Positions 1 to 21,625 of a stretch of 32,000 nt of DNA are shown one piece after another (position 1 is the stretch's first letter; each line of letters starts with the position of its first letter). The stretch comes from Mycolicibacterium smegmatis. GTDB lineage: Bacteria > Actinomycetota > Actinomycetes > Mycobacteriales > Mycobacteriaceae. A model generated the notes under the pieces. That model searched no databases, had not been told where the DNA came from, and saw only the letters and a program-made list of their open reading frames with translations. The stretch lies in assembly GCF_001457595.1 (NCBI RefSeq), contig NZ_LN831039.1, positions 1,170,001-1,202,000 on the forward strand, in the 5' to 3' direction. The position numbers were made by a program, and so were the translations under genes.

Positions 1-185
1 CCACTGCTCCGTCGCTCATGACGCTCACCAACCGACTCATGAAGGCCCACCACAGGATTCGCGAGCTCGAAGCCAGCGAGGCCGAGCTGCGCGAGAAAAC
101 CAAGGTGCTCTGCGCCGTCATCGCCAAACTCACCACCGAGGTGCAGTCGCGTTCGGATGCCGAGCCGGTCATGGAGGACGCCTGA
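1..185 (+). CDS. 3' end of an unidentified CDS, 5'-truncated by the window edge. Last 60 codons read ...TLTNRLMKAHHRIRELEASEAELREKTKVLCAVIAKLTTEVQSRSDAEPVMEDA, which looks coiled-coil-like.
   Basis: Frame 3 is open from position 3 to the TGA at 183-185. Third codon positions are strongly G/C biased, as in the confident genes of this window. The stop shares its A with the next ATG (TGATG). Absent from the ORF track only because it has no in-window start. Confidence 0.6.
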   Translation, partial: TAPSLMTLTNRLMKAHHRIRELEASEAELREKTKVLCAVIAKLTTEVQSRSDAEPVMEDA

Positions 186-325
186 TGACCGCCGAACTGT
201 CGACAACCGACCAGACGCTCGGGATCGATCCCGATGCGGTGGACCGCCTCCTTCTCATCGCCCTTCAGCGATGGGAGTCCGATGGAGGTGCCGTCCCCCC
301 TCGAATGGTCCGACAACACGAATGA
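185..325 (+). CDS. Candidate small protein, 46 aa (MTAELSTTDQTLGIDPDAVDRLLLIALQRWESDGGAVPPRMVRQHE), function unknown
   Basis: ATG at 185-187 overlaps the upstream stop (TGATG). TGA at 323-325 lies 9 nt before the GTG of the next gene and runs into its GAGGAG Shine-Dalgarno. It exactly fills the gap between two confident CDSs. G/C third-position bias is only moderate and I recognise no homology. Confidence 0.3.
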   Translation: MTAELSTTDQTLGIDPDAVDRLLLIALQRWESDGGAVPPRMVRQHE

Positions 326-334
326 GGAGACCAC

Positions 335-1462
335 GTGGACGTTTTGGAACGACTCGACCTCGACACCGTCCGAGAACTGTCGCAGCGGACCGACAGGCTG
401 GGAGTGGTGTCGCTGTACTTCAATGCCGACCCTACCCAGAACCTGCAGGTGCAGGCCATCGATCTGAGAAACCGATACCGGTTGTTACATCGCCGCATGG
501 AAGCCGATGGCTCCCAACGCTATCGGGACGTCGCCGCAGCGCTGGAGCGCCGCAGGCCGCTCATCGAGACCCTGATCACCGGAGTCGCGTCGGGCCGCGG
601 GCGCATCATGTTCATCGGGTTGGACGGCGACTGGACCGTGCACTTCGAGTGTATGATGCCGGTGACCAACCGTGTGGTGCTCGACGACGGCCCTTTCATC
701 CACCCGCTGGTGGAAGTTCTCGACGAAGGCCGCCCGGCCGGCGTCGTGGTGATCTCCGCCGACGATGCGCGGTTGCTGGAATGGCGCCTGGGCCAGCTGC
801 AGGAGATCAGTCGCATCGCGCAGCCGTTCGGTCAGGCGCCGCACGAGCGGGCCGGCCAGATGCGCGAACAGCGCCAGGCCCGCGAGCGTGACGGCATGCA
901 GCGATTCGTGACCCAGGTGACCGCGACCGCGACGGATCTCGCCGAGGAGCGTGGGTGGGAACGGATCGTGGTCAGTGGCGGGCAACGCTGGACCGAGCCG
1001 GCCAAGACGAGGTTCGGTCCTCCGCTGCGCGGCAAGGTGCTGGTGGACCGGGGCCTCGGCGGCCTCGACGACGCTGCGCTGACGGCCGCCGTCACCGCGC
1101 GTCTGCACCGGCAGCACAAGTACGACGAACAGCAACTGCTCGACTACTTGTGTGACGCCGGCGGGACCGGTGATGTCGCACTGGGCCTGTCCGAGGTCGC
1201 CGCCGCACTGAACGCAGGCAGGGTCGACCATCTGGTGTACGACCCGGCCGTGCGCTACGTGGGGTCCGTGGGTGCCGACGGGTCGCTGTACGCCGACGGT
1301 GAGATCGCGCCGCACAGTCACGCGGCGACGAAGGACTCCCGATTCACCGAGCGCCTCGTCGACCGGGCATTGGCCACCGGCGCGAGGATCAGCCCGGTGG
1401 AGGGCGCGGCCGGTGCGGTGCTGAAGGACGCCGCAGGCGTCGCGGCGGTGCTGCGCTGGTGA
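335..1462 (+). CDS. eRF1/Pelota-fold protein (bacterial-archaeal eRF1-like, baeRF; Vms1/Ankzf1-type putative peptidyl-tRNA hydrolase), 375 aa
   Basis: GTG start with GAGGAG at 325-330. By-eye collinearity with eRF1 M and C domains: VVVISADDARLLEW vs GFIVMDGSGALFGTL; HERAGQMREQRQARERDGMQRFVTQV vs [26 protein letters not shown] (AGQ at nt 851-859); RIVVSGGQ vs GLVLAGSA; C-terminal GVAAVLRW vs GIGGILRY. Confidence 0.75.
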   Translation: MDVLERLDLDTVRELSQRTDRLGVVSLYFNADPTQNLQVQAIDLRNRYRLLHRRMEADGSQRYRDVAAALERRRPLIETLITGVASGRGRIMFIGLDGDWTVHFECMMPVTNRVVLDDGPFIHPLVEVLDEGRPAGVVVISADDARLLEWRLGQLQEISRIAQPFGQAPHERAGQMREQRQARERDGMQRFVTQVTATATDLAEERGWERIVVSGGQRWTEPAKTRFGPPLRGKVLVDRGLGGLDDAALTAAVTARLHRQHKYDEQQLLDYLCDAGGTGDVALGLSEVAAALNAGRVDHLVYDPAVRYVGSVGADGSLYADGEIAPHSHAATKDSRFTERLVDRALATGARISPVEGAAGAVLKDAAGVAAVLRW

Positions 1463-1509: not shown

Positions 1510-1521
1510 CGACACGTGTCG
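1510..1521. promoter_or_regulatory. Perfect 12-bp palindrome CGACACGTGTCG upstream of tspO; candidate operator
   Basis: Exact self-complementarity read in the sequence. It ends 30 nt before the tspO ATG (1552), inside the 89-bp intergenic region. Confidence 0.3.
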
Positions 1522-1551
1522 AAAAGGCGTACAGCGGGTACTAGTTGACGC

Positions 1552-2037
1552 ATGCGACCGATCACCTTGGCCAAGACAGCATCTGCAGTAATCGCGACGG
1601 GAGTCGTCGGCGGGCTCGCGAGCCGCGGGTCACAGACTGCCTGGTATCAGTCGCTGCGCAAGCCGTCGTTCCAGCCGCCGCCTGCGGCGTTCCCGATCGC
1701 GTGGAACCTGCTGTACGCCGATATCGCGTCGACGTCGGCCCACACCATCGACAAGTTCCAGGAGCAGAACCGTGACGACAAGGCCCGCGCCTATTCGGTG
1801 GCTTTGGCCGCCAACCTGATCCTCAATGCGAGCTGGTCGTGGATCTTCTTCAACCGCGGCAAGCTCGGCACCGCTGCCATCGCGGCCGGGGCGCTCGCGG
1901 CCAGCAGCGCCGACCTCACCCGTCGTGCGGTCGACGCGCAGGGCGCACGCGGTGCGATCCTCGCGCCCTACCCGCTGTGGTGCACGTTCGCGACGGTGCT
2001 CTCGACGCGGATCTGGATGCTCAACCGCAAGCGCTGA
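1552..2037 (+). CDS. tspO: TspO/MBR family tryptophan-rich sensory protein, 161 aa
   Basis: Family signature WYQSLRKPSFQPPPAAFPIAWNLLY, then NASWSWIFF and PYPLWCTFATVL. About five hydrophobic segments and typical length. Confidence 0.9.
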   Translation: MRPITLAKTASAVIATGVVGGLASRGSQTAWYQSLRKPSFQPPPAAFPIAWNLLYADIASTSAHTIDKFQEQNRDDKARAYSVALAANLILNASWSWIFFNRGKLGTAAIAAGALAASSADLTRRAVDAQGARGAILAPYPLWCTFATVLSTRIWMLNRKR

Positions 2038-2120: not shown

Positions 2121-3350
2121 TCAGCTGAACGGCACCCGCTGATCGATCCGCCGCGACGCCAGGCCCGCGGTGCGCCACACGCGAGCGATCCAGTCGGCGT
2201 CCTCGTCGGTCACCAGGTTGCCCATCACCCGGACCGCGATGGTCATCAACGTCGCCGACCGCATCGCCACAGGCCCGGTGACCTGCAGGAAGCGCGGCAG
2301 CGTCAGCAGCAACGCGAGCCTGCGCGCCACCGAGAACCCGCGCGCGTAGTGCTCCTGCAGCAGCGTCGGCCAGGCCGAGGAGTAGTCGGTCACGCCGCCG
2401 GAGGTCATGAGTTCGGCGGCCAGCCGTCCTGTCTCCAGCCCGTAGTCGATGCCCTCGCCGTTGAGCGGGTTGACGCATGCCGCGGCGTCGCCGATCAGCA
2501 TCCAGTTGGGCCCGGCGACGCCCGAGACCGCGCCACCCATCGGTAGCAGCGCCGACAGTCCGGCGCGCGGTTCGCCGACCAGACCCCACTCCTCGCGGCG
2601 CAGGTCGGCGTAATAGGACATAAGTGGCCGCAGGGCCGCATCGGCAGGACGCTTCGCGGTCGCAAGCGCGCCGACGCCGATGTTCACCTCGCCGTTGCCC
2701 AGCGGGAACATCCAGCCGTACCCGGGTAGCACCTTGCCCTCGGGGGAGCGCAGTTCGAGGTGCGACGTGATCCAGGGCTCGGACGCGCGGGGGCTCGCGA
2801 TGTAGCCGCGGATCGCCACGCCGTACACGGTCTCCCTGTGCCAGGTACGGCCCAGCACGCGGCCCAGCGTCGAACGCGCGCCGTCGGCCACGATGAGCTG
2901 CGCGCAACCGACGGTGTTGCCGTCGTCGAGCACCACGGCGTCCACGCGGCCGCTCGAATCATGGGTCACATCAACGACTTTGGTGCCCAGCATCATCTTG
3001 GCGCCGTCGTCGGCGGCGACCGAGCGGATCCGGTCGTCGAGTTCGGTACGCGGCACCGCGCTGCTTGTCGCGGGGAATGACGGACCCGGCCACGGAATCT
3101 CGACGTCGGCGCCGAACCCCGACATGCGCAGCCCGTGGTGGCGGATGCGGGTGTCCAGCCACGAAGCCATCCCGAGGCGCTGCAGTTCGGCCACGGCACG
3201 CGGCGTCAGCCCGTCCCCGCACGCCTTGTCACGGGGAAACTGCGCGGCGTCGACCACGACCACGTCGCGACCTGCGCGTGCGGCCCATGCCGCGGCAGCC
3301 GAACCAGCCGGTCCGGCTCCGACGACGACCACATCCGCTCGGGTGTTCAT
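2121..3350 (-). CDS. menJ: Geranylgeranyl-reductase-family flavoprotein, MenJ-like menaquinone isoprenoid reductase, 409 aa
   Basis: Start MNTRADVVVVGAGPAGSAAAAWAARAGRDVVVVD carries the GxGxxG FAD fold; DKACGDGLTPRAV motif follows. Length and divergent pairing with grcC1 followed by htpX match my recollection of Rv0561c-Rv0562-Rv0563. The 664-aa track ORF is an artefactual upstream extension. Confidence 0.85.
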   Translation of the reverse strand: MNTRADVVVVGAGPAGSAAAAWAARAGRDVVVVDAAQFPRDKACGDGLTPRAVAELQRLGMASWLDTRIRHHGLRMSGFGADVEIPWPGPSFPATSSAVPRTELDDRIRSVAADDGAKMMLGTKVVDVTHDSSGRVDAVVLDDGNTVGCAQLIVADGARSTLGRVLGRTWHRETVYGVAIRGYIASPRASEPWITSHLELRSPEGKVLPGYGWMFPLGNGEVNIGVGALATAKRPADAALRPLMSYYADLRREEWGLVGEPRAGLSALLPMGGAVSGVAGPNWMLIGDAAACVNPLNGEGIDYGLETGRLAAELMTSGGVTDYSSAWPTLLQEHYARGFSVARRLALLLTLPRFLQVTGPVAMRSATLMTIAVRVMGNLVTDEDADWIARVWRTAGLASRRIDQRVPFS

Positions 3351-3359
3351 GGTTCCCAG

Positions 3360-3365
3360 TATGTT
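3360..3365 (+). promoter_or_regulatory. Candidate -10 hexamer TATGTT for a leaderless grcC1 transcript
   Basis: Fits the mycobacterial TANNNT -10. Six nt separate it from the G of the GTG start at 3372, and there is no room or sequence for a Shine-Dalgarno in the 21-bp menJ-grcC1 gap. Confidence 0.3.
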
Positions 3366-3371
3366 GGCAGA

Positions 3372-4379
3372 GTGAGTACCCCAGCGACCGTGGTGGCAGG
3401 CGTTGACTTCGGCGATCCGGCATTCGCCGCCGACGTCCGCGACGGTGTGGCCCGTATCGAGGACCTGATGTCCGATGAGCTGGGCAAAGCCGACGAGTTG
3501 ATGGCCGAGGCCGTCCAGCACCTGTTCCAGGCCGGTGGCAAACGCTTCCGCCCGCTGTTCACGGTCCTGTCGGCGCAACTCGGCCCTGAACCGGACGCCT
3601 GGCAGGTCACGGTGGCCGGCGCGGTCATCGAACTCGTGCACCTCGCGACGCTGTACCACGACGACGTCATGGACGAGGCGCAGATGCGCCGCGGTGCGCA
3701 GAGCGCCAACGCACGCTGGGGCAACAACATCGCGATCCTCGCCGGCGACTACCTGTTCGCCACGGCGTCGCGACTCGTGTCCCGTCTGGGTCCCGACGCG
3801 GTGCGTGTGATTGCTGACACATTTGCTCAGCTGGTCACCGGCCAGATGCGGGAGACACGCGGCGCGGCCGACCACGTCGACTCCGTCGACCACTACCTCA
3901 AGGTCGTCTACGAGAAGACCGCGTGCCTGATCGCGGCCTCGGGCCGGTTCGGTGCGACGTTCTCCGGCGCCAACGACGAGCAGATCGAGCGGCTGAGCCG
4001 GCTCGGCGGCATCGTCGGCACGGCGTTCCAGATCGCCGACGACATCATCGACATCGACAGCGACCCCGACGAGTCCGGCAAGACGCCCGGCACCGACCTG
4101 CGTGAAGGCGTTCACACCCTGCCGGTGCTGTACGCGCTGCGCGAGACCGGACCTGACGCCGACCGGCTGCGTGAACTGCTGGCCGGTCCCATCGAGCGCG
4201 ACGAGGACGTGGCCGAGGCCCTGGCGCTGCTGCGCAGGTCACCGGGGCTGACCAAGGCCAAGGAGACCGTCGCGTCGTACGCGGCGCAGGCCCGCGAAGA
4301 GCTTTCCCACCTGCCGGAGTGCCCGGGCCGTCAGGCGCTCGCGGTGCTCGTGGACTACACGATCAGCCGGGAAGGCTGA
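3372..4379 (+). CDS. grcC1: Polyprenyl diphosphate synthase (trans-isoprenyl diphosphate synthase), 335 aa
   Basis: Both aspartate-rich motifs are present: LYHDDVMDE and FQIADDIIDID. The in-frame GTG at 3372 gives 335 aa, the size I recall for Rv0562. The track start at 3135 would overlap menJ by more than 200 nt. Confidence 0.9.
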   Translation: MSTPATVVAGVDFGDPAFAADVRDGVARIEDLMSDELGKADELMAEAVQHLFQAGGKRFRPLFTVLSAQLGPEPDAWQVTVAGAVIELVHLATLYHDDVMDEAQMRRGAQSANARWGNNIAILAGDYLFATASRLVSRLGPDAVRVIADTFAQLVTGQMRETRGAADHVDSVDHYLKVVYEKTACLIAASGRFGATFSGANDEQIERLSRLGGIVGTAFQIADDIIDIDSDPDESGKTPGTDLREGVHTLPVLYALRETGPDADRLRELLAGPIERDEDVAEALALLRRSPGLTKAKETVASYAAQAREELSHLPECPGRQALAVLVDYTISREG

Positions 4380-4408
4380 TCAGGAACCCAAACGGGTTGC
4401 TGGGCGTT

Positions 4409-4428
4409 TAACTGTCGAGTAACTGTCG
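4409..4428 (+). promoter_or_regulatory. Tandem direct repeat TAACTGTCG-AG-TAACTGTCG (11-bp period) upstream of htpX; candidate regulator binding site
   Basis: Two exact 9-mers at 4409-4417 and 4420-4428, lying 38-57 nt upstream of the htpX ATG. Confidence 0.35.
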
Positions 4429-4453
4429 GGGACATTTCCCAGTTTCTAGCTGA

Positions 4454-5353
<900 letters not shown>

Positions 5354-6348: not shown

Positions 6349-6394
6349 CACGAGACCGCTGGCCCGGCGCATGGGGCCGGGTTAGGGTAGCGGC

Positions 6395-6919
6395 GTGCTG
6401 AGCAGACTGCTGGTTGGACTGGCAAGCGCCGCGGGGGCGGCAGTGATGAGCGTTCCTGGCGTCGCCGCGGCTGATCCGCAGGCCGATCCACCGCCACCCA
6501 CGGTTCCCAACGTCAACGCGTATCCGCCGGTCAAGACCTCGGAGTACGCCGTGATGGACAACAACTGGTACGCCTTCAGCATCGGCGAAGGCATCACGTG
6601 CGTCCTGCAGCGCACCGGCAGCTACGGGTGCAGCGGGCCCATCCCCGCCGCACCCAACGGCGCCAACCTGGTCAGCGGCGGTCCGGGCGTGCCCGGCTTC
6701 GCGAGCTCGCCCGCACCGGTGTTCGCCGTCGTCAGCGACGCCAAGCCGCTGCCGCCGAACACCCGCCTGAGCTATCAGACGATCAGCTGCGGCTTCGATG
6801 GCGTGACGACGGCGTGCATCGATGGACGCAACCAGGCGGGCTTCGTGATCAGCCCGACCGGAAGCTTCGTCATCGGTCAGCAGGAATCGGATTTCAAGCC
6901 GACCTTCCAGATCGGCTGA
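6395..6919 (+). CDS. Secreted protein of unknown function, 174 aa, signal peptide, Pro-rich linker, 4 Cys
   Basis: GTG start. Signal-like N-terminus MLSRLLVGLASAAGAAVMSVPGVAAADP. Two Cys pairs (ITCVLQRTGSYGC and ISCGFDGVTTAC). G/C third-position bias is good. Confidence 0.65.
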   Translation: MLSRLLVGLASAAGAAVMSVPGVAAADPQADPPPPTVPNVNAYPPVKTSEYAVMDNNWYAFSIGEGITCVLQRTGSYGCSGPIPAAPNGANLVSGGPGVPGFASSPAPVFAVVSDAKPLPPNTRLSYQTISCGFDGVTTACIDGRNQAGFVISPTGSFVIGQQESDFKPTFQIG

Positions 6920-6930
6920 GTCAGCCGATC
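6910..6930. terminator. Perfect 10-bp inverted repeat containing both stop codons of the convergent genes
   Basis: gatcggctga (6910-6919), g, tcagccgatc (6921-6930). The + gene ends Q-I-G-stop and the - gene ends G-I-G-stop on the two arms. Confidence 0.4.
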
Positions 6931-11815: not shown

Positions 11816-11848
11816 ATGATGGTGTCGACGCGTGACGGGATCGGATGA
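11816..11848 (+). CDS. Candidate 8-10 codon upstream ORF (MMVSTRDGIG) whose stop overlaps the yrbEA ATG (ATGA)
   Basis: A strong GGGAGGA Shine-Dalgarno at 11809-11815 is followed by ATG-ATG-GTG (11816, 11819, 11822). The TGA at 11846-11848 overlaps the ATG at 11845-11847. yrbEA has no Shine-Dalgarno of its own. Confidence 0.3.
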   Translation: MMVSTRDGIG

Positions 11849-12714
11849 CCACGTCGCCTGACCGTGTGTCGGATGGGGGAGCACCGGAGCGCGGGACCGA
11901 CGCGATCGAGAAGTGGGCCACCGGTTACGTCCGACGCCATCCGATCGCCTCGCTGACCACCGTCGGCGATCAGTTCGTCCTCGGCGTGCGCACCGTCCAA
12001 TACCTGTTCACCGAGCTCTTCACCGGCCGGTTCCAATGGCAGGAATTCATCCGGCAGGGCGCCTTCATGGCGGGCACCGCCGTGGTGCCGACGGTGCTGG
12101 TGGCCCTGCCCATCGGCGTCACCCTCTCCATCCAGTTCGCGCTGCTGGCCGGCCAGGTGGGTGCGACGTCGCTCGCCGGTGCGGCCAGCGGGCTCGCGGT
12201 GATCCGGCAGGCCGCATCGCTGACCGCGGCCGTGCTCATGGCCGCGGCGGTGGGCTCGGCAATCACCGCCGATCTCGGTTCCCGCAAGATGCGCGAAGAG
12301 ACCGACGCCATGGAGGTCATGGGGGTCTCGGTGATCAAGCGTCTCGTCGTGCCGCGCTTCGCCGCGGCCATCATGATCGGCGTCGCGCTGACCGGCGTGG
12401 TGTGCTTCGTCGGATTCCTCGCGAGCTTCCTGTTCAACGTCTACTTCCAGGACGGCGCACCCGGCAGCTTCGTGGCCACCTTCGCGTCGTTCGCGACGAC
12501 GGGCGACATGATCGTTGCGTTGATCAAGGCGGTGATCTTCGGCGCGATCGTGGCCGTGGTGTCGTGTCAGAAGGGGCTGTCCACCGTGGGCGGGCCGACG
12601 GGCGTGGCCAACTCGGTGAACGCCGCGGTGGTCGAATCGATCCTGCTGCTGATGGTCGTCAACGTCGCGATCAGCCAGCTCTACATCATGCTGTTCCCGC
12701 GGGTGGGGCTGTGA
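11845..12714 (+). CDS. yrbEA: Mce-system ABC permease YrbEA (MlaE family), 289 aa
   Basis: MlaE-like membrane core (GAFMAGTAVVPTVLVALPIGVTLSIQF..., EVMGVS motif). First gene of the yrbE-mce array. An in-frame stop at 11833 limits the start to 11845 or the GTG eight codons later. Confidence 0.9.
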   Translation: MTTSPDRVSDGGAPERGTDAIEKWATGYVRRHPIASLTTVGDQFVLGVRTVQYLFTELFTGRFQWQEFIRQGAFMAGTAVVPTVLVALPIGVTLSIQFALLAGQVGATSLAGAASGLAVIRQAASLTAAVLMAAAVGSAITADLGSRKMREETDAMEVMGVSVIKRLVVPRFAAAIMIGVALTGVVCFVGFLASFLFNVYFQDGAPGSFVATFASFATTGDMIVALIKAVIFGAIVAVVSCQKGLSTVGGPTGVANSVNAAVVESILLLMVVNVAISQLYIMLFPRVGL

Positions 12715-12715
12715 C

Positions 12716-13573
12716 ATGACCGCGTCGCCGTACGTCCCGACACTGCTCGCGCCGTGGGTGCGCTTCGGGCAGCGTGCCTCGAAGCCGATCGTGCGCCTCG
12801 GGCACATGCTCGTGTTCTTCGTGCGCGCGGTCGCGGCGATACCGATCGTGCTGCGGCACTACCGCGGCGAGTTCGTGCGGTTGCTGTCCGACATCGCCTG
12901 GGGCAACGGATCTCTCGTCGTCGGCGGCGGTACCGCCGGTGTGGCCGTGGTGCTGGGCATCACCGTCGGCGCCCTCGTCGGCATCGAGGGCTACAACTTC
13001 CTGGACCTGCTCGGCCTCGGACCGGCGACGGGCATCATCTCGTCACTGGTCAACACGCGTGAGCTCGCGCCGATCGCGGCGTCGCTGGCGTTCGCCACGC
13101 AGGCGGGCTGCCGCTTCACCGCGCAACTCGGCTCGATGCGCATCGCCGAGGAGATCGACGCGCTCGATTCCATTGCGATCCGGCCGATCCCGTATCTGGT
13201 GACGACGCGGCTGATGGCCGCGGTGGTCGCGGTGATCCCGCTGTACGTGATGTGCCTGGCGGTGAGCTACCTGACCACCCAGACCGTGGTGTTCCTGATC
13301 AGCGGCGGGTCGACGGGTTCATATCTGCACTACTTCACGTTGATGCTGTCCGGCCAGGACATCCTGTACTCGCTGCTGAAGACCATCATCTTCGTGTGGA
13401 TCGCCTCCACGGTGCAGTGCTACTACGGTTTCTACGCATCGGGCGGCCCGGTGGGCGTCGGTGTCGCGGCCGGACACGCCATGCGGGCCAGCATCACCGT
13501 GGTGATCATCGTCAACATGCTGCTGACCATGGCGTTGTGGTCGGTGGATTCGGGTGCACGGTTCGGCGGTTGA
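12716..13573 (+). CDS. yrbEB: Mce-system ABC permease YrbEB (MlaE family), 285 aa
   Basis: Paralogous MlaE-type sequence (EEIDALDSIAIRPIPYLV motif region). ATG lies 1 nt after the yrbEA stop (TGACATG). Confidence 0.9.
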   Translation: MTASPYVPTLLAPWVRFGQRASKPIVRLGHMLVFFVRAVAAIPIVLRHYRGEFVRLLSDIAWGNGSLVVGGGTAGVAVVLGITVGALVGIEGYNFLDLLGLGPATGIISSLVNTRELAPIAASLAFATQAGCRFTAQLGSMRIAEEIDALDSIAIRPIPYLVTTRLMAAVVAVIPLYVMCLAVSYLTTQTVVFLISGGSTGSYLHYFTLMLSGQDILYSLLKTIIFVWIASTVQCYYGFYASGGPVGVGVAAGHAMRASITVVIIVNMLLTMALWSVDSGARFGG

Positions 13574-13574
13574 C

Positions 13575-15179
13575 ATGGGGAACTCGATCGAACTCGACGG
13601 GCGCGGGCCATCCGAGAGGCAGCTTCTGGCCTGCGGGCTCGCCGTTCTGGTTGTTGCAGGGCTGATCTCGACGGTGCTGCTGGTCAAGGCGACCGGACGG
13701 CTCGACCCGTACGTCCGGGTGGTGGCCGCGCTGATCAACGTCGGTGACGGCCTGCCGCAGCGCTCCGACGTCAAGTACCACGGTGTGCTGGTCGGCATGG
13801 TCGAGGACGTCACCCCAGCCGCACACGGTGAACCCAACTACGTCCACATCAATCTGAATCCCGAGTACGCGTCGTCGATTCCGAGCACGGTGACTGCCCG
13901 AGTGGTGCCCAGCAACGTGTTCGCGGTGTCGTCGGTGCAGTTGGTCGACCGCGACGGCGGGGCAGGCCCGGCGATCTCGGCCGGTGCGCAGATCCCCGAG
14001 GACACCGAACTTCCGACGGTGTTGTTTCAGACCACCATCAGCAAGCTGCGCGACATCCTCGCCGCCACCGGCCGCGGCCGCGAGGACCGCACGGTGGGTG
14101 TGCTCGCCGCAGTCAACGCCGCCACTGAGGGCCGCCGCACCGAATTGCTCACCAGCGGTGCGCAATTGAACCGTCTCATCGACGAGGTCGATTCGATCGT
14201 CGCGACCGACCCGTCCGCACCCACCACGGTGTCGACGCTGATCGAGGCCACCCGCGGTCTGCAACAGACCGCGCCGGAACTGGTCGACGCGCTGCACACG
14301 GCCGTGCGGCCGATGCAGACCCTGGTGGAGCAGCGGTCCCAGCTCGACTCGCTGATCAGCGCGGGCATGAACACCCTCGACACCACACGCACCGCGCTGA
14401 ACAACCACACCGACCGGCTGGTCAAGATCACCTCCGAGCTGACGCCCGTGGTGGGCAACCTGGCCGACACCTCACACCACTGGCTGCCCGCGTTCGTCAA
14501 GCTGAACAACCTGTCCGACAAGTTCTTCGACGAGGTGTGGCGGCCCGAACGCAACGTCGGCAACATGCGGATGAACCTGTCGTTCACCCCGAGCTACACC
14601 TACACCCGCGCGGACTGCCCGCAGTACGGAGAACTCAAGGGACCCAGCTGCTTCACCGCTCCGCTGGTGGTGACGCGGCCCGCGCTGCCCGACCAGATGC
14701 TGCCGCGCAACTACCAGCCGCCAAAGGACCTGGCGCCCCCGCCGGGCACCGTCGTGGGCGAGAACGGGAACCTGGTCGCGGTCGGTCCTCCGCTGATCAA
14801 CCCGAATCCCAGCCTGGCCGACCCGAATCCGCCGCTGCCGCCGTGGATGGCGCCCGCGCCGCCGGTACCCGGCACGGCCAACTCGGCGTTGCCCGTGACC
14901 CCGCCGCCCGGGGTCAACCAGTCACCGTTGGCACCGGTCGCGCCGAAACCGGGCAGCCCGCCCCCACCGGCGCCCGCGCCCGGCCCGCTGCCCGCCGAAG
15001 CCGCGCCGGCGTCGTTCGGCGGCAACGTCGGGCCGGTAGGCAGCGAACAGGAACGGGTGACGCTCAGCGTGATCACCGGTCAGCCGGCCAGCACGGCAAC
15101 CCAGCTGCTGCTGGGGCCGGTGGCCCGCGGCACCACCGTGTCGCTTGCCGAACCCACTGCAGGAGAGGAGCCCCGATGA
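13575..15179 (+). CDS. mceA: Mce protein A (MlaD-domain substrate-binding subunit) with a long Pro-rich C-terminal tail, 534 aa
   Basis: ATG lies 1 nt after the yrbEB stop. N-terminal transmembrane helix LLACGLAVLVVAGLISTVLLV. MlaD core GDGLPQRSDVKYHGVLVGMVEDV. Pro-rich tail at about nt 14700-15010. Confidence 0.9.
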   Translation: MGNSIELDGRGPSERQLLACGLAVLVVAGLISTVLLVKATGRLDPYVRVVAALINVGDGLPQRSDVKYHGVLVGMVEDVTPAAHGEPNYVHINLNPEYASSIPSTVTARVVPSNVFAVSSVQLVDRDGGAGPAISAGAQIPEDTELPTVLFQTTISKLRDILAATGRGREDRTVGVLAAVNAATEGRRTELLTSGAQLNRLIDEVDSIVATDPSAPTTVSTLIEATRGLQQTAPELVDALHTAVRPMQTLVEQRSQLDSLISAGMNTLDTTRTALNNHTDRLVKITSELTPVVGNLADTSHHWLPAFVKLNNLSDKFFDEVWRPERNVGNMRMNLSFTPSYTYTRADCPQYGELKGPSCFTAPLVVTRPALPDQMLPRNYQPPKDLAPPPGTVVGENGNLVAVGPPLINPNPSLADPNPPLPPWMAPAPPVPGTANSALPVTPPPGVNQSPLAPVAPKPGSPPPPAPAPGPLPAEAAPASFGGNVGPVGSEQERVTLSVITGQPASTATQLLLGPVARGTTVSLAEPTAGEEPR

Positions 15180-16231
15180 AGATCCGCGGTGCGCTCATCG
15201 GACTGTCGTTGTTCATGGTCGTGGCGCTGACGCTGACGTGGATGGTCTATGTGACGCTACGTCGCGACGTGGCCGGGCGAACCGTGCCGTACACAGCGGT
15301 GTTCACCGACGTGTTCGGGCTGCGCGAGGGCGACGACGTGCGCATGGCCGGCGTGCGCGTCGGCCGCGTCGAGAAGATCGAACTCGACGGCAAGCACGCC
15401 AAGGTGTCGTTCGTGGTGCAGGCCGACCAGCAGGTGTTCGGCAACACCGTCGCGTCGGTGACCTACCAGAACATCGTCGGACAGCGGTATCTCGGCCTGT
15501 CCCTGGGCAAGGAGGGCGATCCCACGCTGTTGCCCGCAGGCAGCGTGATCCCGCTCGAACGCACCGACCCGTCGTTCGACGTCGGGACGCTGCTCAACGG
15601 CTACGAGCCGCTGTTCAGCGTGCTCGACCCGAAATACGCGAACAACCTCACCGAGGGCGTCATCCAGTCGCTGCAGGGCGACCAGGGCTCCATCACGGCG
15701 CTGATCGACCAGACCGCCCAGCTCACCGAGGCGTTCGCGGGACGCGACGAGGAACTCGGCAGCGTGATCACGGATCTGAACGCCGTGGCCGCCAACCTGG
15801 CCCGGCACAACGACGACCTGGACCACATCGTGTCGGAGGCGCAGTCGGTCGTGGCGACGTTCGAGGCGCGCAGACCCGAGCTGGTGGAGTCGATGGGCTC
15901 GATCGCCAAGGTGGTGCGCCAGTTGTCGACGATCTCCGACGAGGTGTACCCGTCCCTCCATGAAATGGTCCAGCGCCAGCCCGGTTTCGCTGCGCACATG
16001 TTGGGGATCGAACCGCAGTTGGCGTTCGTGGGTGCCAATCTTCCGCTGATGCTGAAGGGATTCGCGCGGATCACCCAGGAGGGCACATACGCCAACGCCT
16101 ACCTGTGTGACCTGAACGCCACCGCGTTCTTCCCGGGGCTCAACGACGTCACGCCGATCATCGTCGACGCGGCGACCCCCGGCAACAAGGCGCAGCACAC
16201 CCCCAAGTGCAGGAGCATGGCCAATGGCTGA
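15176..16231 (+). CDS. mceB: Mce protein B, 351 aa
   Basis: ATGA overlap with mceA, with AGGAGAGGAG upstream. N-terminal transmembrane helix IGLSLFMVVALTLTWMV. MlaD core GLREGDDVRMAGVRVGRVEKIEL. The track ORF starting at 14537 is an out-of-frame extension across the mceA tail. Confidence 0.9.
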   Translation: MKIRGALIGLSLFMVVALTLTWMVYVTLRRDVAGRTVPYTAVFTDVFGLREGDDVRMAGVRVGRVEKIELDGKHAKVSFVVQADQQVFGNTVASVTYQNIVGQRYLGLSLGKEGDPTLLPAGSVIPLERTDPSFDVGTLLNGYEPLFSVLDPKYANNLTEGVIQSLQGDQGSITALIDQTAQLTEAFAGRDEELGSVITDLNAVAANLARHNDDLDHIVSEAQSVVATFEARRPELVESMGSIAKVVRQLSTISDEVYPSLHEMVQRQPGFAAHMLGIEPQLAFVGANLPLMLKGFARITQEGTYANAYLCDLNATAFFPGLNDVTPIIVDAATPGNKAQHTPKCRSMANG

Positions 16232-17264
16232 GGCGCGAAAGGCCAGGCGGCGCAAACCGCTCGAGAGCTACAACCGCCTGTGGCTCGGTGTCGTCGCGGT
16301 CGCCGTGGTGTCGGTGCTGATCGGGGCGATGCTGCTGGTGCGGGTCGCCGACATCGGCTATACGCAGTACACCGCGCGGTTCCTGCAGGCCGCCGCGCTC
16401 AAGGCGGGCAACCCGGTGACGGTGGCCGGCATCCCGGTCGGTGAGGTCAAGAGCATGCGGCTGGCCGGGGACCACGTCGAGGCGAAGATCAAGGTGCGCA
16501 ACGACGTTGGTCTCGGCAAGGATTCGCGCGCCAAGATCATGGTGACGACCATCCTCGGTTCGCGGTATCTGTCACTGGAACCCGCGGGTGACGGGACGCT
16601 CCCGGACAGGACTTTCGACCTTTCGCACACCGACGTGCCGTACGACCTGCAGGAGGCGCTGACCGACGTCACCACGACGTTCGAGAAGGTCGACTCCGAC
16701 AAGTTCGCCGAGACGCTGCAGATCCTCGGTTCCCAGTTGGAGACGCTGCCGCCGGTGATCCCGCAGGCGCTGGAGAACACCCACACGCTGTCGACGATCA
16801 TCGCCCAGCGCCGCGATCAGCTCGGTGAGCTGCTCAAGACCACCGAGCTGATCAGCAACACGCTGTATCGGCAGAAGTCCACCATCGGAAGCCTGATGAA
16901 CCAGAGCAACTCGCTGCTGGCGGAATTCGTGGCCCGGCGCGCGACCTTCCACGCGATGATGGACGCGCTGACCAACCTGGTGCAGACGTTGAGCGGCATC
17001 GTCATCGACGACCGTCCGGAGCTGGAGAAACTGGTCGAGGATCTGCGCCAACTGTCCTCGCTGCTCAGCAAGAACGACGGCATGCTCCGCAGCATCCTGC
17101 AGACCGCACCGATCGCGTTGCGCAACATCGCCAACATGACCGGCACCGGCAACGCCATCGACTTCAACTCCTCCAGCGGCCTGCTGGTCGACTCCTGGAT
17201 GTGCGCGATCAGTGGCCGCGCCAAGCAGTTCGGCATGATCCAGTACTTCCAGGACTGCAAATGA
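16224..17264 (+). CDS. mceC: Mce protein C, 346 aa
   Basis: 8-nt overlap with mceB; AGGAG 8 nt upstream. Transmembrane helix LWLGVVAVAVVSVLIGAMLLV. MlaD core LKAGNPVTVAGIPVGEVKSMRL. Confidence 0.9.
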   Translation: MAEARKARRRKPLESYNRLWLGVVAVAVVSVLIGAMLLVRVADIGYTQYTARFLQAAALKAGNPVTVAGIPVGEVKSMRLAGDHVEAKIKVRNDVGLGKDSRAKIMVTTILGSRYLSLEPAGDGTLPDRTFDLSHTDVPYDLQEALTDVTTTFEKVDSDKFAETLQILGSQLETLPPVIPQALENTHTLSTIIAQRRDQLGELLKTTELISNTLYRQKSTIGSLMNQSNSLLAEFVARRATFHAMMDALTNLVQTLSGIVIDDRPELEKLVEDLRQLSSLLSKNDGMLRSILQTAPIALRNIANMTGTGNAIDFNSSSGLLVDSWMCAISGRAKQFGMIQYFQDCK

Positions 17265-18382
17265 AACTTCTGAGGAACAAGGTGGCCGCGGCGTTGCTCG
17301 CCGCGGTGGTACTCGGTGCCGTGGTGCTGGCGGTCGGCGGTGCCTATGTGAAGCAGCAGATGGGCGCCATCACCGTTACCGCCCAGTTCGACAGCGCAGC
17401 AGGGCTTTACGAGGGCAATGTGGTCGCGGTCCTTGGCATGCCGGTGGGCGAGGTCAAGAAGATCCGCAACAGGAACGGCTACGTCGAGGTGGAGTTCACG
17501 GTCGACAAGGGCGTCAACATTCCCGCCGACGTCCAGGCTGCCACCATCTCCAATTCGATTCTGACCGACCGCCAGATCGAGTTGACCCCGCCGTACCGGG
17601 GTGGTCCGACGCTGCAGAACAACGCCACGATCGGTTTGAACCGCACCCGCACACCGGTGGAGTTCGCGCGGGTGCTCGATGTTCTCGACAAGCTCGCGGG
17701 TTCGCTGCGCGGTGACGGCAAGGGCAACGGCCCGATCGCCGACGTACTCGGTGCCGGCGCGTCCATCGTCGACGGCAACGGCCAGCAGATGAAAGACGCG
17801 CTGGGCGAACTGTCGAACGCGTTGCGGCTCAGCTCAGATCGCGGGCAGGTCACCAAGGATCAGCTGACCACGATCGTGCGTAACCTGAGTGCGCTGTCGC
17901 AGGCCGCGGCCGACAACGACGCCATGATGCGCGAATTCGGCTCCTCCGTGCGGGCGTTGAGCCAGATCGTCGCCGACGAGGATCTGGGCAGCGGCACCAC
18001 CGGCAAGAAGATCAATGAGGTGCTCACCCACACCGGGCAGGTGCTCGAAACCCACCGCGACGCCATCAAGGATCTGGTCGCCAACGGTGACGTCGTGCTG
18101 AACACCGTCGCCGTCGACCACGAACGCGACGTGAAGGAGCTGCTCGACATCGCACCGATGACCTTGGACAACCTGTACAACGTCGCCGACAAGAAGAACG
18201 GCGCGTTGCGGGTGAAGGTGGTCACCGACAAGCTGCTGTTCGACAATCAGCTGATCAAAGAGGTCTGCAACATGATGGGTCTGCGCCAATTGGGCTGCAG
18301 CACCGGCACGCTGCAGGACTTCGGGCCTGACTTCGGATTGAGCTCCATGCTCGACGGACTTGCGGCGATGGGGCAGAAGTGA
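17261..18382 (+). CDS. mceD: Mce protein D, 373 aa
   Basis: ATGA overlap with mceC. Transmembrane helix AAALLAAVVLGAVVLAVGG. MlaD core GLYEGNVVAVLGMPVGEVKKIRN. Confidence 0.9.
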   Translation: MKLLRNKVAAALLAAVVLGAVVLAVGGAYVKQQMGAITVTAQFDSAAGLYEGNVVAVLGMPVGEVKKIRNRNGYVEVEFTVDKGVNIPADVQAATISNSILTDRQIELTPPYRGGPTLQNNATIGLNRTRTPVEFARVLDVLDKLAGSLRGDGKGNGPIADVLGAGASIVDGNGQQMKDALGELSNALRLSSDRGQVTKDQLTTIVRNLSALSQAAADNDAMMREFGSSVRALSQIVADEDLGSGTTGKKINEVLTHTGQVLETHRDAIKDLVANGDVVLNTVAVDHERDVKELLDIAPMTLDNLYNVADKKNGALRVKVVTDKLLFDNQLIKEVCNMMGLRQLGCSTGTLQDFGPDFGLSSMLDGLAAMGQK

Positions 18383-19659
18383 TGGCAGCTTCACCGAAAC
18401 GTCTACGGAAAGTTCGTCTGGTCGCGGCGTTCGCGATGACGGTCATCGTCTCCGGCTGCGCCACAAACGGTCTGGCCGATCTGCCGTTGCCCGCCCCCGG
18501 TGTGGGCAGCGGCGGGTACCGGATCACCGCGATCTTCTCCAACGCGCTGAACCTGCCCGCCAACGCCAAGGTCAAGCTCGCCGGCGCCGACATCGGCGAG
18601 ATGGACTCCATGGTCGCCCGCAACTACACCGCGGTGACCACGTTGCGGATCATGGAAGGCGTGCGACTGCCCGAGGGCAGCACTGCCGAGTTGCGGTCCG
18701 CGACACCACTCGGCGATGTGTTCATCGCCATCAAACCTCCCGCCCCGGTCGAGCCAGGCACGCCGTTGCTCAAAGACGGTGACACCATCGACCTGGACGC
18801 AACCGCCGCCGCGGCCACGGTCGAATCGGTGCTGAGTTCGGCGGCGATCCTCGTCAACGGCGGAGCCGTGCGCAACTTCACCAACCTCATCAACGGCATG
18901 GGCAAGGCGACCGGCGACCAGGGCCAGGCGTTCGGCAACCTGATCCGCAAGACCAACAACACGCTGGCGACACTGACCGCGCGGTCGGAGGAGATCTCGA
19001 CCGCGATGACCGAGACATCACGCCTGGCACAACAGATTTCGGCCAAGAACCAGGCGCTCAGCGATGTGATGGCGCAGGCCCGTCCCGCCACCGACACGCT
19101 GGCGGCCCACACCACGCAGATCGCGGACCTGGTCACCCAGATCGGCGACGTGTCCGACCAGCTGCGCAAGTTCCCGTCGATCGCGGGGGCCGACACCAGC
19201 GGCCGCAGCGTGATCGCCGACGCCAACACGGTTGCGGGAGCGTGGAATGACGTCGCGCTTGCCCCCGATGCGACCCTCTATGCGCTCAACCGGCTGCTGC
19301 CGCCGTTCATCAAGTCGATGAGTTCCGGTGCCATCTCGCTCGACGCGAGCGTCGACCGCCTCATCCTCGGCTCCACACCCGACATCGGCTTCGCAGGCGA
19401 TCAGGGGTTGCACGGTCCCAAGCGCCACGATTGGCACCAGTTGGTCGGCACGCTCAAGTACACGTTGCTGCGCCTGCAGGAGCGAGTGGTGGGCCAAGGC
19501 CCAGGTGTGCCACAGGTTCCGGTGATCCCCAGCCCCACCGAGCCCGGCGAGATCATCGTCGATCCCGGCGCGGCCGCGCCGCCCGAAGACGCTCCGGCAC
19601 CCGAACCGGCGCCCGCGGCGCAGGCGCCGGCACCGCTACCCGCTGAGGCCCCGCGATGA
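18379..19659 (+). CDS. mceE: Mce protein E, lipoprotein (LprK/LprN-like), 426 aa
   Basis: GTGATG overlaps the mceD stop. Lipobox TVIVSGC within the signal peptide. MlaD core LPANAKVKLAGADIGEMDSM. Pro/Ala-rich C-terminus. Confidence 0.9.
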   Translation: MMAASPKRLRKVRLVAAFAMTVIVSGCATNGLADLPLPAPGVGSGGYRITAIFSNALNLPANAKVKLAGADIGEMDSMVARNYTAVTTLRIMEGVRLPEGSTAELRSATPLGDVFIAIKPPAPVEPGTPLLKDGDTIDLDATAAAATVESVLSSAAILVNGGAVRNFTNLINGMGKATGDQGQAFGNLIRKTNNTLATLTARSEEISTAMTETSRLAQQISAKNQALSDVMAQARPATDTLAAHTTQIADLVTQIGDVSDQLRKFPSIAGADTSGRSVIADANTVAGAWNDVALAPDATLYALNRLLPPFIKSMSSGAISLDASVDRLILGSTPDIGFAGDQGLHGPKRHDWHQLVGTLKYTLLRLQERVVGQGPGVPQVPVIPSPTEPGEIIVDPGAAAPPEDAPAPEPAPAAQAPAPLPAEAPR

Positions 19660-20912
19660 TCAACGCAGTCGCCGACCGGATCGTCGGCCTCGTCCGCTTC
19701 GGGTACCGCAAGCGGTCCTGGTTGTCTGCGCTCGGGCTGGTGATGACGCTCGTCGTCGCGACGGCGTACTTGTTCTTCGGTGCGCTGCAGGTGAATCCGC
19801 TCGATTCGGACTACCGCCTCACGGTTCAGCTGCCGGAGTCGGCGGGCCTGCTGCCGGATCAGGACGTGACGCTACGAGGTGTGCCGATCGGCCGCGTAGA
19901 ACGTCTCGACATCACGCCGTCCGGGGTCAATGCGATCGTCAAGGTGAAGTCGACGGTGCGGATCCCCGAGGCCAGCGACGTTCGGGTGTCGGGGTTGTCG
20001 CCGGCCGGTGAGCAGTACATCGACTTCATCGACGTGCCCGCCGAGAGTTCGAGCCGGTTCCTGGCCGACGGTGCGGTGATCCGGCAGGGGCAGGCCACTG
20101 TCCCGGTCAGCCTCGCGAATCTGCTGGCCGACGCCGACGGTGCGCTCGGGCAGGTGGACACCGCGAAGATCGAACTGATCAAGCGCGAGTTGAGCCTGAC
20201 CGACGCCGGCCCGCAGAAGCTCGCCGATATCGTCGACGGCGGAACGTTCCTGCTGTCCACGCTCGATTCGGTGCTGCCAGAGACCAGTTCGCTGCTGCGG
20301 ACCGGCCGCGTGGTGTTCACCTTGATGGCCGACAAGAATCCCGGCATCAGCGTCGCCTCGGACAATCTCACCGAAACCTTCACGGGCATGGACAAGATGC
20401 GCGAGGGATACCGTCGACTGACCAACCAGACCCCGGAGACCCTGGCGGCGGTCGACAACCTGTTCGTCGACAACTCCGACACCATGGTGCAGCTCTTGGG
20501 CAATCTCACCACCGCCTCACGGCTGCTCTACCTGCGGGTGCCCGCGCTCAACGCGCTGTTCCCGTCGTACCGCACCTCGGTGCTCGACGCGCTCGGCACC
20601 GCGATCCACGACGGTGGTCTGTGGGGGACGGCCGAACCGTACCCGCGCTACACCTGCGACTACGGCACACCGAAACTGCCGCCGTCATCGGCAGATTTCC
20701 CGGAGCCGTTCATGTACACCTACTGCCGCGACGTCCATCCGGGCGTCCTGGTCCGCGGGGCGAAGAACGCGCCTCGGCCTGCGGACGACGACACCGCGGG
20801 GCCGCCACCGGGCGCTGATCTCGGTCGCCAGACCGACCCCACGCCCAGGGGCCGCTACACCATTCCGACGCCCTACGGGGGACCGACGCTGCCGATCGAA
20901 CCGCCTCGGTAG
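19656..20912 (+). CDS. mceF: Mce protein F, 418 aa
   Basis: ATGA overlap with mceE. Transmembrane helix LSALGLVMTLVVATAYLFFGA. MlaD core GLLPDQDVTLRGVPIGRVERLDI. Confidence 0.9.
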   Translation: MINAVADRIVGLVRFGYRKRSWLSALGLVMTLVVATAYLFFGALQVNPLDSDYRLTVQLPESAGLLPDQDVTLRGVPIGRVERLDITPSGVNAIVKVKSTVRIPEASDVRVSGLSPAGEQYIDFIDVPAESSSRFLADGAVIRQGQATVPVSLANLLADADGALGQVDTAKIELIKRELSLTDAGPQKLADIVDGGTFLLSTLDSVLPETSSLLRTGRVVFTLMADKNPGISVASDNLTETFTGMDKMREGYRRLTNQTPETLAAVDNLFVDNSDTMVQLLGNLTTASRLLYLRVPALNALFPSYRTSVLDALGTAIHDGGLWGTAEPYPRYTCDYGTPKLPPSSADFPEPFMYTYCRDVHPGVLVRGAKNAPRPADDDTAGPPPGADLGRQTDPTPRGRYTIPTPYGGPTLPIEPPR

Positions 20913-20938
20913 CCACGCCCCATACGAAGGAGATGACC

Positions 20939-21625
20939 GTGAAACTCAAAACCGACAAGCGCAGGGATGTCTTCGACGAGGCCGTCGAGGACACCGAGGA
21001 CGCCGAGGTTGAGGCACTCGATGTCGCCGAGTCGGAGGACACCGCAACGGAACCCGAATCCGACGAGGTCACCGGTCCTTCCGGCGAGAAGCCGTCCGAC
21101 AAGCCTTCCGACGAGAAGCCGGCTGAAACGGTCACCAGCCCAAACCAGCGTCGTGGCGTCGTACTGGGCGTTGCCGCAGGCATTCTGGTCGCCGCACTGC
21201 TGGGCGGCGGCGGGTTCGTCGGCTGGCAGCTGTGGCAGACCAAGCAGGTGATCGCGGCCGGAAACCAGGCCAGAGACGCCGCGGTGAACTACGCCCAGGT
21301 GCTCACCAGCATCGACTCGAACAAGGTCGACGAGAATTTCGACCAGGTGCTCGCAGGCGCCACGGGGGAGTTCAAGGACATGTACTCGCAGTCGAGCATG
21401 CAGCTGCGCCAGTTGCTGATCGAGAACAAAGCCACCGCGCACGGCGTGGTGGTGGAGTCGGCCGTGCAGTCGGCGACCAAAAACAAAGCTGTGGTGCTGC
21501 TCTTCGTCGACCAGTCGGTGCAGAACACGGCCGTGCCGGATCCCCGCATCGACCGCAGCCGCATCAAGATGACCATGGAGAAGGTCGACGGGCAATGGAA
21601 AGCAAGCAAGGTCGAGCTGCCCTGA
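20939..21625 (+). CDS. Mce-associated membrane protein (Mam/Mas type): acidic N-terminal region, one transmembrane helix, C-terminal globular domain; about 228 aa
   Basis: GAAGGAG at 20926-20932 is well spaced for the GTG at 20939; the ATG at 20933 directly abuts it and is the alternative start. Layout is an acidic low-complexity stretch, then GVVLGVAAGILVAALLGGGGFVGW, then a roughly 120-aa domain, as in Mce-associated proteins downstream of mycobacterial mce operons. Confidence 0.8.
   Translation: MKLKTDKRRDVFDEAVEDTEDAEVEALDVAESEDTATEPESDEVTGPSGEKPSDKPSDEKPAETVTSPNQRRGVVLGVAAGILVAALLGGGGFVGWQLWQTKQVIAAGNQARDAAVNYAQVLTSIDSNKVDENFDQVLAGATGEFKDMYSQSSMQLRQLLIENKATAHGVVVESAVQSATKNKAVVLLFVDQSVQNTAVPDPRIDRSRIKMTMEKVDGQWKASKVELP

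Follow-up and report, generated by a model that had tools for sequence, protein, structure and literature searches.

Balon proteins are, according to Helena-Bueno et al. (Nature 2024, PMC10901736), a third family of hibernation factors in bacteria, with an origin in aeRF1, and they are the closest known systems to the gene considered here. In that article, the Mycolicibacterium smegmatis protein Msmeg1130 and Rv2629 of M. tuberculosis were expressed and both solved on the M. smegmatis 70S ribosome, where both occupied the A site. The two proteins co-sedimented with ribosomes and inhibited in vitro translation about 15-fold, being as effective as RaiA. Entry of Msmeg1130 into the A site of the 70S ribosome needed neither mRNA nor a stop codon, and the protein kept EF-Tu on the ribosome, with 20% of particles in the presence of guanosine diphosphate (GDP) versus 2.9% with GDPCP. 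It shared Balon's modified decoding-site-binding and EF-Tu-binding sites, and MSMEG_1130 was grouped with proteins without the GGQ motif. In Balon of Psychrobacter urativorans, the middle-domain loop was reported to wrap around A2602, outside the catalytic centre and behind U2585, leaving the centre inert. Other studies bear on the M. smegmatis protein: antisense knock-down of MSMEG_1130 had earlier led to faster growth (PMC5694894), and later papers count MSMEG_1130 among the M. smegmatis hibernation factors, in one case among those able to bind stationary-phase ribosomes (PMC13393426). Herein, we analysed a stretch of 32,000 nucleotides (nt) of M. smegmatis DNA (assembly GCF_001457595.1, contig NZ_LN831039.1, positions 1,170,001 to 1,202,000; hereafter the window) and the gene at 335-1462 on its plus strand. 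This gene very probably encodes a Balon homologue of the aeRF1 superfamily that serves as a hibernation factor, carries a non-catalytic AGQ loop and is probably the last cistron of a packed run of genes.

The gene, an MSMEG_1130 orthologue, is an uninterrupted open reading frame (ORF) of 375 amino acids (aa) with a GTG start and a TGA stop, as a preliminary description of this DNA had claimed. Its product matched the NCBIfam equivalog NF052288, "MSMEG_1130 family ribosome hibernation factor", with 577.5 bits against a cut-off of 480, and the match ran end to end (residues 5-375 on model positions 1-387 of 387). The Pfam model PF18854, baeRF_family10, matched residues 120-261 on model positions 1-142 of 143 (E 5e-36; 124.5 bits against a gathering threshold of 27.1), confirming the proposed membership in the bacterial aeRF1 (baeRF) families. 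When all PDB sequences were searched, the single match was chain z of 8V9J/8V9L, a protein of 375 aa labelled "Ribosome hibernation factor Balon (MSMEG_1130)", with an E value of 1e-241 and 365/375 identical residues (97%). The exact window protein is encoded in M. smegmatis assemblies, e.g. GCA_029221905.1, and falls in the same 90% cluster as the mc2155 protein A0QRI6_MYCS2 (A0QRI6).

Comparison with the mc2155 protein of 8V9J/8V9L, the same gene in another strain, revealed the same start, the same end and the same 12-aa loop deletion described below, together with differences at 10 codons of the Balon gene (window 508-510 etc., plus strand). With the window residue first, the ten substitutions are E13D, H52Q, H170Q, D185E, V191L, D201E, T254S, A289T, S311T and G359D; H170Q falls within the string HERAGQ, the first His of which is Gln in mc2155. 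These differences suggest that the window carries the allele of a divergent M. smegmatis lineage. MSMEG_1130 itself is already known: it is the structural reference of its family, and its ribosome-bound structure was published in 2024. The preliminary description knew of no experimental work on a mycobacterial member, a view overtaken by the structure and assays in PMC10901736 and by the antisense phenotype in PMC5694894; the 70S co-sedimentation that it proposed as a check had already been published, with a positive result (PMC10901736).

By analogy with the 97%-identical mc2155 protein, the window protein would enter the A site independently of mRNA, retain GDP-bound EF-Tu on the ribosome and block protein synthesis, and the ten substitutions of the allele would leave this behaviour (A site, EF-Tu(GDP), inhibition) as it is in mc2155. 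The peptidyl-transferase centre would stay inert with MSMEG_1130 bound, an expectation carried over from P. urativorans Balon. A role in ribosome rescue by peptidyl-tRNA hydrolysis had been envisaged for the gene. Instead, the published work shows A-site binding, EF-Tu(GDP) recruitment and inhibition of translation, and no release activity was reported.

The fold of the protein was assessed with an AlphaFold model (predicted local distance difference test, pLDDT, 88.5; predicted template-modelling score, pTM, 0.82). Foldseek aligned the model to 8v9l_z with a template-modelling (TM) score of 0.91, to aRF1/eRF1 over ~400 columns with E values of 1e-17 to 1e-13, and to Pelota/Dom34 with E values of 1e-9 to 1e-7. 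A family profile built from 84 diverse, de-redundant relatives, down to ~26% identity, matched Pelota with an E value of 8e-11 and both S. pombe eRF1 and A. pernix aRF1 with E values of 2e-5, through the middle (M) and C-terminal (C) domains. In the profile alignments, RIVVSGG pairs with the "LAGSADF" strand of eRF1, and the LRW at the C-terminus with LRF of Pelota. The Pfam eRF1 domain models (eRF1_1, eRF1_2 and eRF1_3) gave no match at E <= 1 in hmmscan of the window protein; its kinship with eRF1 is visible only by profile or fold comparison. The strings on which the preliminary description had built its alignment by eye (VVVISADDARLLEW, HERAGQMREQRQARERDGMQRFVTQV, RIVVSGG and GVAAVLRW) were all found in the window protein, and its three-domain eRF1/Pelota fold with collinear motifs is supported by the profile matches and by Foldseek far beyond chance. 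For the central strand and the LRW at the C-terminus, comparison of the 84-relative profile with eRF1/Pelota bears out the alignment that it proposed, and the profile search and structure prediction with Foldseek that it called for recovered the eRF1/Pelota fold.

Three domains can be laid out along the plus strand. The N-terminal domain (aa 1-119; 335-691), supported by the full-length Foldseek alignment to aRF1/eRF1 and Balon structures, is the counterpart of the codon-reading domain of aeRF1. No NIKS string occurs in these 119 residues, as the preliminary description had observed and in agreement with the published account of Msmeg1130 in PMC10901736. The middle domain (aa 120-261; 692-1117) is an RNase-H-like aeRF1 M domain according to PF18854 and the profile alignment to the eRF1/Pelota M domains. 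The C-terminal domain (aa 262-375; 1118-1459) is of the Pelota type according to the profile alignment to Pelota/eRF1 C termini, and its end, ...AAVLRW, is conserved. A beta-strand insert, with model strands at 310-312, 318-320 and 332-334, lies within this domain at about aa 306-335. The C domain of Balon is described as having a "unique beta-loop" touching EF-Tu domain III (PMC10901736), and the insert probably corresponds to this EF-Tu-contacting loop.

AGQ (A173 G174 Q175; codons GCC GGC CAG) lies at 851-859 on the plus strand, where the preliminary description had placed it. It belongs to the loop that links the beta-hairpin to the long helix (aa 163-176, QPFGQAPHERAGQM; 821-862, plus strand), the topological equivalent of the aeRF1 GGQ loop, which is here 14 residues long. 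In the AlphaFold model, the loop has a pLDDT of about 65 and is flanked by a strand at 154-162 and a helix at 177-206. The reading of AGQ as the context of a catalytic Gln was not supported, and AGQ is not a conserved equivalent of GGQ. Among 32 close orthologues (54-99% identity), H170, E171, R172 and G174 were invariant, and Q175 was Gln in 27/32 and H or R in the other five. Among the 84 diverse members, G174 was kept in 74, and position 175, a Gln specific to this clade, was Pro in 62 and Gln in only 6. Conservation of AGQ among orthologues had been named beforehand as a point on which the preliminary description should be judged, and these counts go against it.

The register of AGQ is a further peculiarity of M. 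smegmatis. All close orthologues except M. smegmatis carry 12 extra residues right after position 175, with the consensus HERAGQ-IGGGPxGQFHTP-MREQRQ. DNA comparison with M. goodii and a third species (locus L067) placed the junction of a lineage-specific, in-frame 36-nt deletion at 859/860 on the plus strand, between the codons of Q175 and M176. The codons absent there encode IGGGPKGQFHTP in M. goodii, and the deleted segment, flanked by GAT microhomology, corresponds to IGGGPxGQFHTP (12 aa; compare about 6525-6560 of locus L065). The hairpin-helix loop has 26-29 residues in 201/219 full-length members and 14 in M. smegmatis and a few others; the listed full-length members of the M. smegmatis cluster are all of 375 aa. 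With its 14 aa, the window protein departs from the typical long loop G-[QP]-x-G-G-[GN]-P ... [GAS]-Q. The best-conserved loop Gln of the family, that of [GAS]-Q, is present in 173/219 full-length and 53/84 de-redundant members and lies inside the segment that M. smegmatis has lost. This truncation is an atypical trait of the family's own reference protein and not grounds for excluding it from the family.

Only through the 36-nt deletion in the M. smegmatis lineage does AGQ sit directly against the helix, in the manner of GGQ in eRF1, and the gapless match of HERAGQMREQRQ to eRF1 that the preliminary description had picked out arises only because the deletion moved AGQ there. Burroughs and Aravind (2019, PMC6514570) singled out baeRF family 10 for the well-conserved Gln in its loop, which "could potentially function" in peptide hydrolysis; most plausibly, this is the residue lost by M. 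smegmatis and not Q175. The same authors noted rRNA contact by arginines for baeRF families. R183 of the helix after the loop is conserved in 68/84 diverse members, and the conserved arginines of this helix probably contact rRNA in the present family too. We infer that AGQ is a by-product of a species-specific 12-residue deletion and not a catalytic motif.

The gene closes a tightly packed run that reaches beyond the start of the window. Coordinates of this run are also given on L001, a contig of the same strain, on which the window position equals the L001 position minus 9666. Directly upstream lies s46, an ORF of 46 aa (185-325, plus strand) with the core LIALQRWES[DE]GGA, conserved in M. 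goodii and L067 and separated from the Balon gene by the 9-nt gap 326-334, GGAGACCAC. A Shine-Dalgarno-like GAGGAG at 324-329 (plus strand), 5 nt upstream of the GTG, overlaps the s46 stop codon. Upstream of s46 is s63, which encodes a predicted helical peptide of 63 aa; its 3' part occupies 1-185 on the plus strand (L001 9660-9851), and its start is at window position -6, i.e. 7 nt before the window. Within the window, the s63 frame is seen from 18 as an ORF at 18-185, which shares TGATG at 183-187 with s46 in a 1-nt overlap. An ORF of 47 aa (s47) and a 423-aa flavin adenine dinucleotide (FAD)-dependent oxidoreductase of the D-amino-acid-dehydrogenase type precede s63. Along the run oxidoreductase-s47-s63-s46-Balon, the gaps or overlaps are 31, 12, -1 and 9 nt, and the three small ORFs span L001 9504-9991. 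The TGATG overlap and the 9-nt gap had thus been described correctly, but GAGGAG straddles the TGA stop and is not wholly in the gap. A first gene starting outside the window was also right, though by 7 nt only, and the "three-ORF module" captured the packed small ORFs but not the length of the run, in which the oxidoreductase and three small ORFs precede Balon. Balon is probably the last cistron of this run, and translational coupling is likely in view of the close spacing and overlaps.

The packed arrangement is specific to the M. smegmatis/goodii clade and is not a feature of the family. The same gene order was found in M. goodii and in L067, where the Balon protein is 72% identical, and it was absent from 59 more distant loci with an orthologue; the idea that the arrangement might be conserved across Actinobacteria did not survive this comparison. 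In a tblastn search of the 59 loci, s47 and s63 were not found, and s46 gave weak matches in three loci, downstream of the Balon gene. Word-indexed protein searches with the small ORFs likewise returned relatives only from the same narrow clade. An ORF with the s46 core lies just downstream of Balon in L011 (about 6797-6898), L030 of M. alsense (6366-6629) and L057 of M. kyorinense (about 6819-6926), and a small ORF with WEDEGG lies just upstream of the Balon gene in L025 (about 4792). Such s46-like ORFs beside Balon orthologues may reflect a functional link.

The substitution patterns of the small ORFs differ. Counterparts of s63 with 69-97% identity occur in M. goodii and two further lineages, and its substitutions by codon position numbered 4, 3 and 9 (third position 9/16) and 9, 5 and 18 (third position 18/32) in two species comparisons. 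Those of s46 numbered 1, 2 and 9 in one comparison and 10, 8 and 22 in the other. s47 is less convincing as a coding sequence, with 7 non-synonymous versus 5 synonymous changes in one comparison and 17 versus 5 in the other. None of s47, s63 and s46 matched a Pfam, NCBIfam or PADLOC family; the best match among them, SCO5555_fam for s63, reached 16.5 bits against a cut-off of 40 and was rejected. The FAD oxidoreductase was considered as a conserved partner of Balon and set aside: it lies upstream of Balon orthologues, at a distance, in only two other loci.

Three other explanations were weighed against a Balon-type hibernation factor at the end of a packed run. One is that the protein is an active peptidyl-tRNA hydrolase or rescue factor, whose AGQ loop reaches the peptidyl-transferase centre and frees nascent chains in the manner of eRF1, ArfB or Vms1-type proteins. 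It can appeal to the position of AGQ in M. smegmatis, directly before the long M-domain helix and in the same topological place as the GGQ of eRF1, to the conserved loop Gln of family 10 that "could potentially function" in hydrolysis (PMC6514570), and to the fact that the sections of PMC10901736 that were searched yielded no hydrolysis assay of MSMEG_1130. We consider it very unlikely. Q175 is replaced by Pro in 74% of diverse family members, the better-conserved [G/A/S]-Q (53/84, 173/219) is within the 12 residues that M. smegmatis deleted, and neither NIKS nor another codon-reading motif is present. AGQ would also make a poor catalytic motif: Frolova and colleagues reportedly found in 1999 that replacing either Gly of GGQ abolished the release activity of human eRF1. 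The published structures are described as being without GGQ, and the purified protein acts as an inhibitor of translation instead of releasing product (PMC10901736).

The small ORFs invite two further explanations. Together with the eRF1-like protein they could form a conflict module, of the toxin-antitoxin or anti-phage kind, that shuts ribosomes down on attack. Two or three tiny ORFs, overlapping or nearly abutting, ahead of a ribosome-targeting protein would fit such a module, and baeRF families have been proposed to have arisen in conflict contexts (PMC6514570). Yet none of the five proteins, from Balon and the three small ORFs to the oxidoreductase, matched PADLOC at E <= 0.01, most orthologue-bearing loci do not have the small ORFs, and the published phenotype is growth modulation and hibernation. 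In three species the locus has conserved chromosomal surroundings of the housekeeping kind (MenJ-like reductase, polyprenyl synthase, HtpX-type peptidase) in which mobile-element genes were not seen, and we regard a conflict module as extremely improbable. The other explanation leaves Balon as it is and takes the upstream small ORFs not as functional proteins but as leader or spacer ORFs, or annotation noise, that deliver ribosomes to the Balon start. Their size (46-63 aa), the lack of any Pfam, NCBIfam or PADLOC family, their confinement to a narrow clade and the excess of non-synonymous changes in s47 (7 vs 5; 17 vs 5) all suit it. Against it, s63 and s46 keep their frame, length and most residues over three species while Balon falls to 72% identity, their substitutions are biased to third codon positions, and an s46-like LIALQRWESxGGA ORF occurs beside Balon orthologues in three other mycobacteria, in a different position. 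We consider it rather unlikely that the small ORFs are non-functional.

Several results weigh against the hibernation factor and its packed run as we read them. Since no peptidyl-tRNA hydrolysis assay with MSMEG_1130 was found in the sections of PMC10901736 that were searched, the absence of catalysis rests on arguments from structure and motifs. With hhalign and a close-family profile, the eRF1 string HGRGGQ falls on HERAGQ, at a weak E value of 0.27 and with an eRF1 sequence entered by hand; with HMMER and the diverse profile, the eRF1 GGQ falls against the end of the long loop. A residue-level equivalence of AGQ and GGQ was therefore not relied on in either alignment, and because the two disagree, the argument about AGQ rests on conservation and the deletion. 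For the packed genes, co-transcription is suggested by spacing alone. Neither sigma-70 promoters nor intrinsic terminators were detected in L001 7600-11900. A search of L001 7000-11800 for the SigF element G[TG][TG]T-N14-18-GGG[TA]A gave the promoter of the downstream TspO gene as its sole match and none for the cluster. The DosR-box core GGGACTNNAGTCCC, allowed up to 2 mismatches over a 21-kb contig stretch, was not found upstream of this cluster; its single match, far downstream, was at chance level.

Downstream of Balon, a gene for a TspO/MBR tryptophan-rich sensory protein (1552-2037, plus strand; Pfam PF03073, E 6e-34), an orthologue of MSMEG_1131, follows a SigF-type promoter GTGT-N16-GGGTA found by regular expression in the Balon-TspO intergenic region (1516-1540, plus strand). 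The same GTGT-N16-GGGTA element has been given for MSMEG_1131 in the SigF regulon, with log2 changes of -5.3 and -4.8 in a sigF mutant (PMC4694148). As it has its own published SigF promoter, TspO is a transcription unit separate from Balon. TspO was also tried as a conserved partner of Balon and rejected, since it adjoins no Balon orthologue in the 59 other loci.

Other neighbours are described here for completeness. Window 2121-5353, downstream of TspO, encodes a geranylgeranyl-reductase-like flavoprotein (minus strand), a polyprenyl synthase and an M48 (HtpX-type) peptidase, and this conserved block is syntenic in M. goodii and L067. An mce-type lipid-transport operon, with two MlaE/YrbE permeases followed by several MlaD/Mce4_CUP1 proteins, occupies window 11845-21600 and is ordinary for mycobacteria. 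No Rfam family or tRNA was found in the window. Outside the window, a 39-aa Lys/Arg-rich ORF (MADKSGKTLRKPELSLKERRAIKRAKAEESMPIIRKRKG; L001 7880-7999, minus strand), called in several assemblies and without a family match, is oriented divergently from the oxidoreductase, with an AT-rich intergenic region between the two. Farther upstream, also outside the window, L001 5782-7706 carries genes for a ferredoxin, an HTH_20 regulator and an Rv1733c-family membrane protein, with no DosR-box core nearby. In M. tuberculosis, genes of these types are part of the hypoxia (DosR) regulon.

Balon-type factors are able to act on ribosomes engaged in translation and shut them down, and in mycobacteria they have a bearing on dormancy and drug tolerance. 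All this was in print for the present protein in 2024, and the finding of an eRF1-like gene, as first stated, therefore adds nothing new. What the re-examination contributes is the atypical loop of the structural reference protein and a pair of conserved, unannotated small ORFs packed before the Balon gene. The typical full loop is kept in M. goodii, M. intracellulare, M. kyorinense and many other Actinomycetota. Because the loop of MSMEG_1130 that faces the peptidyl-transferase centre is truncated, conclusions drawn from it should be extended to other members of family 10 with caution. It is conceivable, though we think it improbable, that full-loop members of family 10 might reach the peptidyl-transferase centre and hydrolyse peptidyl-tRNA, and that s63 and s46 could be unrecognised partners or regulators. 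If true, the statement that Balon homologues lack GGQ-type function would not generalise.

Among the described systems, the Vms1/ANKZF1 proteins (VLRF1 clade) belong to the same aeRF1 superfamily as the window protein, and NCBI has given some orthologues of the latter the name "VLRF1 family aeRF1-type release factor". The motifs of the VLRF1 families are GxuQ or GGxSQ, and their actinobacterial representatives are without the N domain (PMC6514570). In contrast, the window protein has all three domains and the loop HERAGQM, is without GxuQ/GGxSQ, and matches only baeRF; the VLRF1 Pfam model gave no match in it. With aeRF1 (eRF1, aRF1), it shares three collinear domains, and the alignment takes in the long helix that follows the tip loop, the central strand and the LR[WY] at the C-terminus. 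Classical aeRF1 has GGQ and NIKS, whereas the window protein has an AGQ that is not conserved in its family and is without NIKS. Their partners and outcomes differ as well: classical aeRF1 pairs with eRF3(GTP) and terminates translation, and MSMEG_1130 pairs with EF-Tu(GDP) and inhibits it. Pelota/Dom34, whose M and C domains align (E 8e-11), is like the window protein an A-site occupant without a catalytic Gln. However, loop A of Pelota senses an empty mRNA channel and the protein splits the subunits with ABCE1, whereas Balon avoids the mRNA channel and preserves the ribosome.

Within the hibernation factors, Rv2629 of M. tuberculosis (PDB 8V9K) is the other mycobacterial Balon homologue and binds the same A site, with a TM score of 0.65 to the window protein. 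It belongs to another subfamily, NF052289, for which the window protein scored 33 bits against a cut-off of 320, and phmmer alone makes no connection between the two; the label "orthologue" that PMC5694894 applies to MSMEG_1130 and Rv2629 is thus a loose one. P. urativorans Balon (PDB 8RD8, 8RDV and 8RDW) is ~16% identical and falls under another equivalog, the AOC03_06830 family, for which the window protein scored 31.5 bits against a cut-off of 330. Its long middle-domain loop forms a "lasso" around A2602, whereas the M. smegmatis loop is truncated. Beyond these differences, the window protein and P. urativorans Balon have the same three-domain architecture (TM 0.67-0.70; profile E 6e-12) and belong to the same family of hibernation factors.

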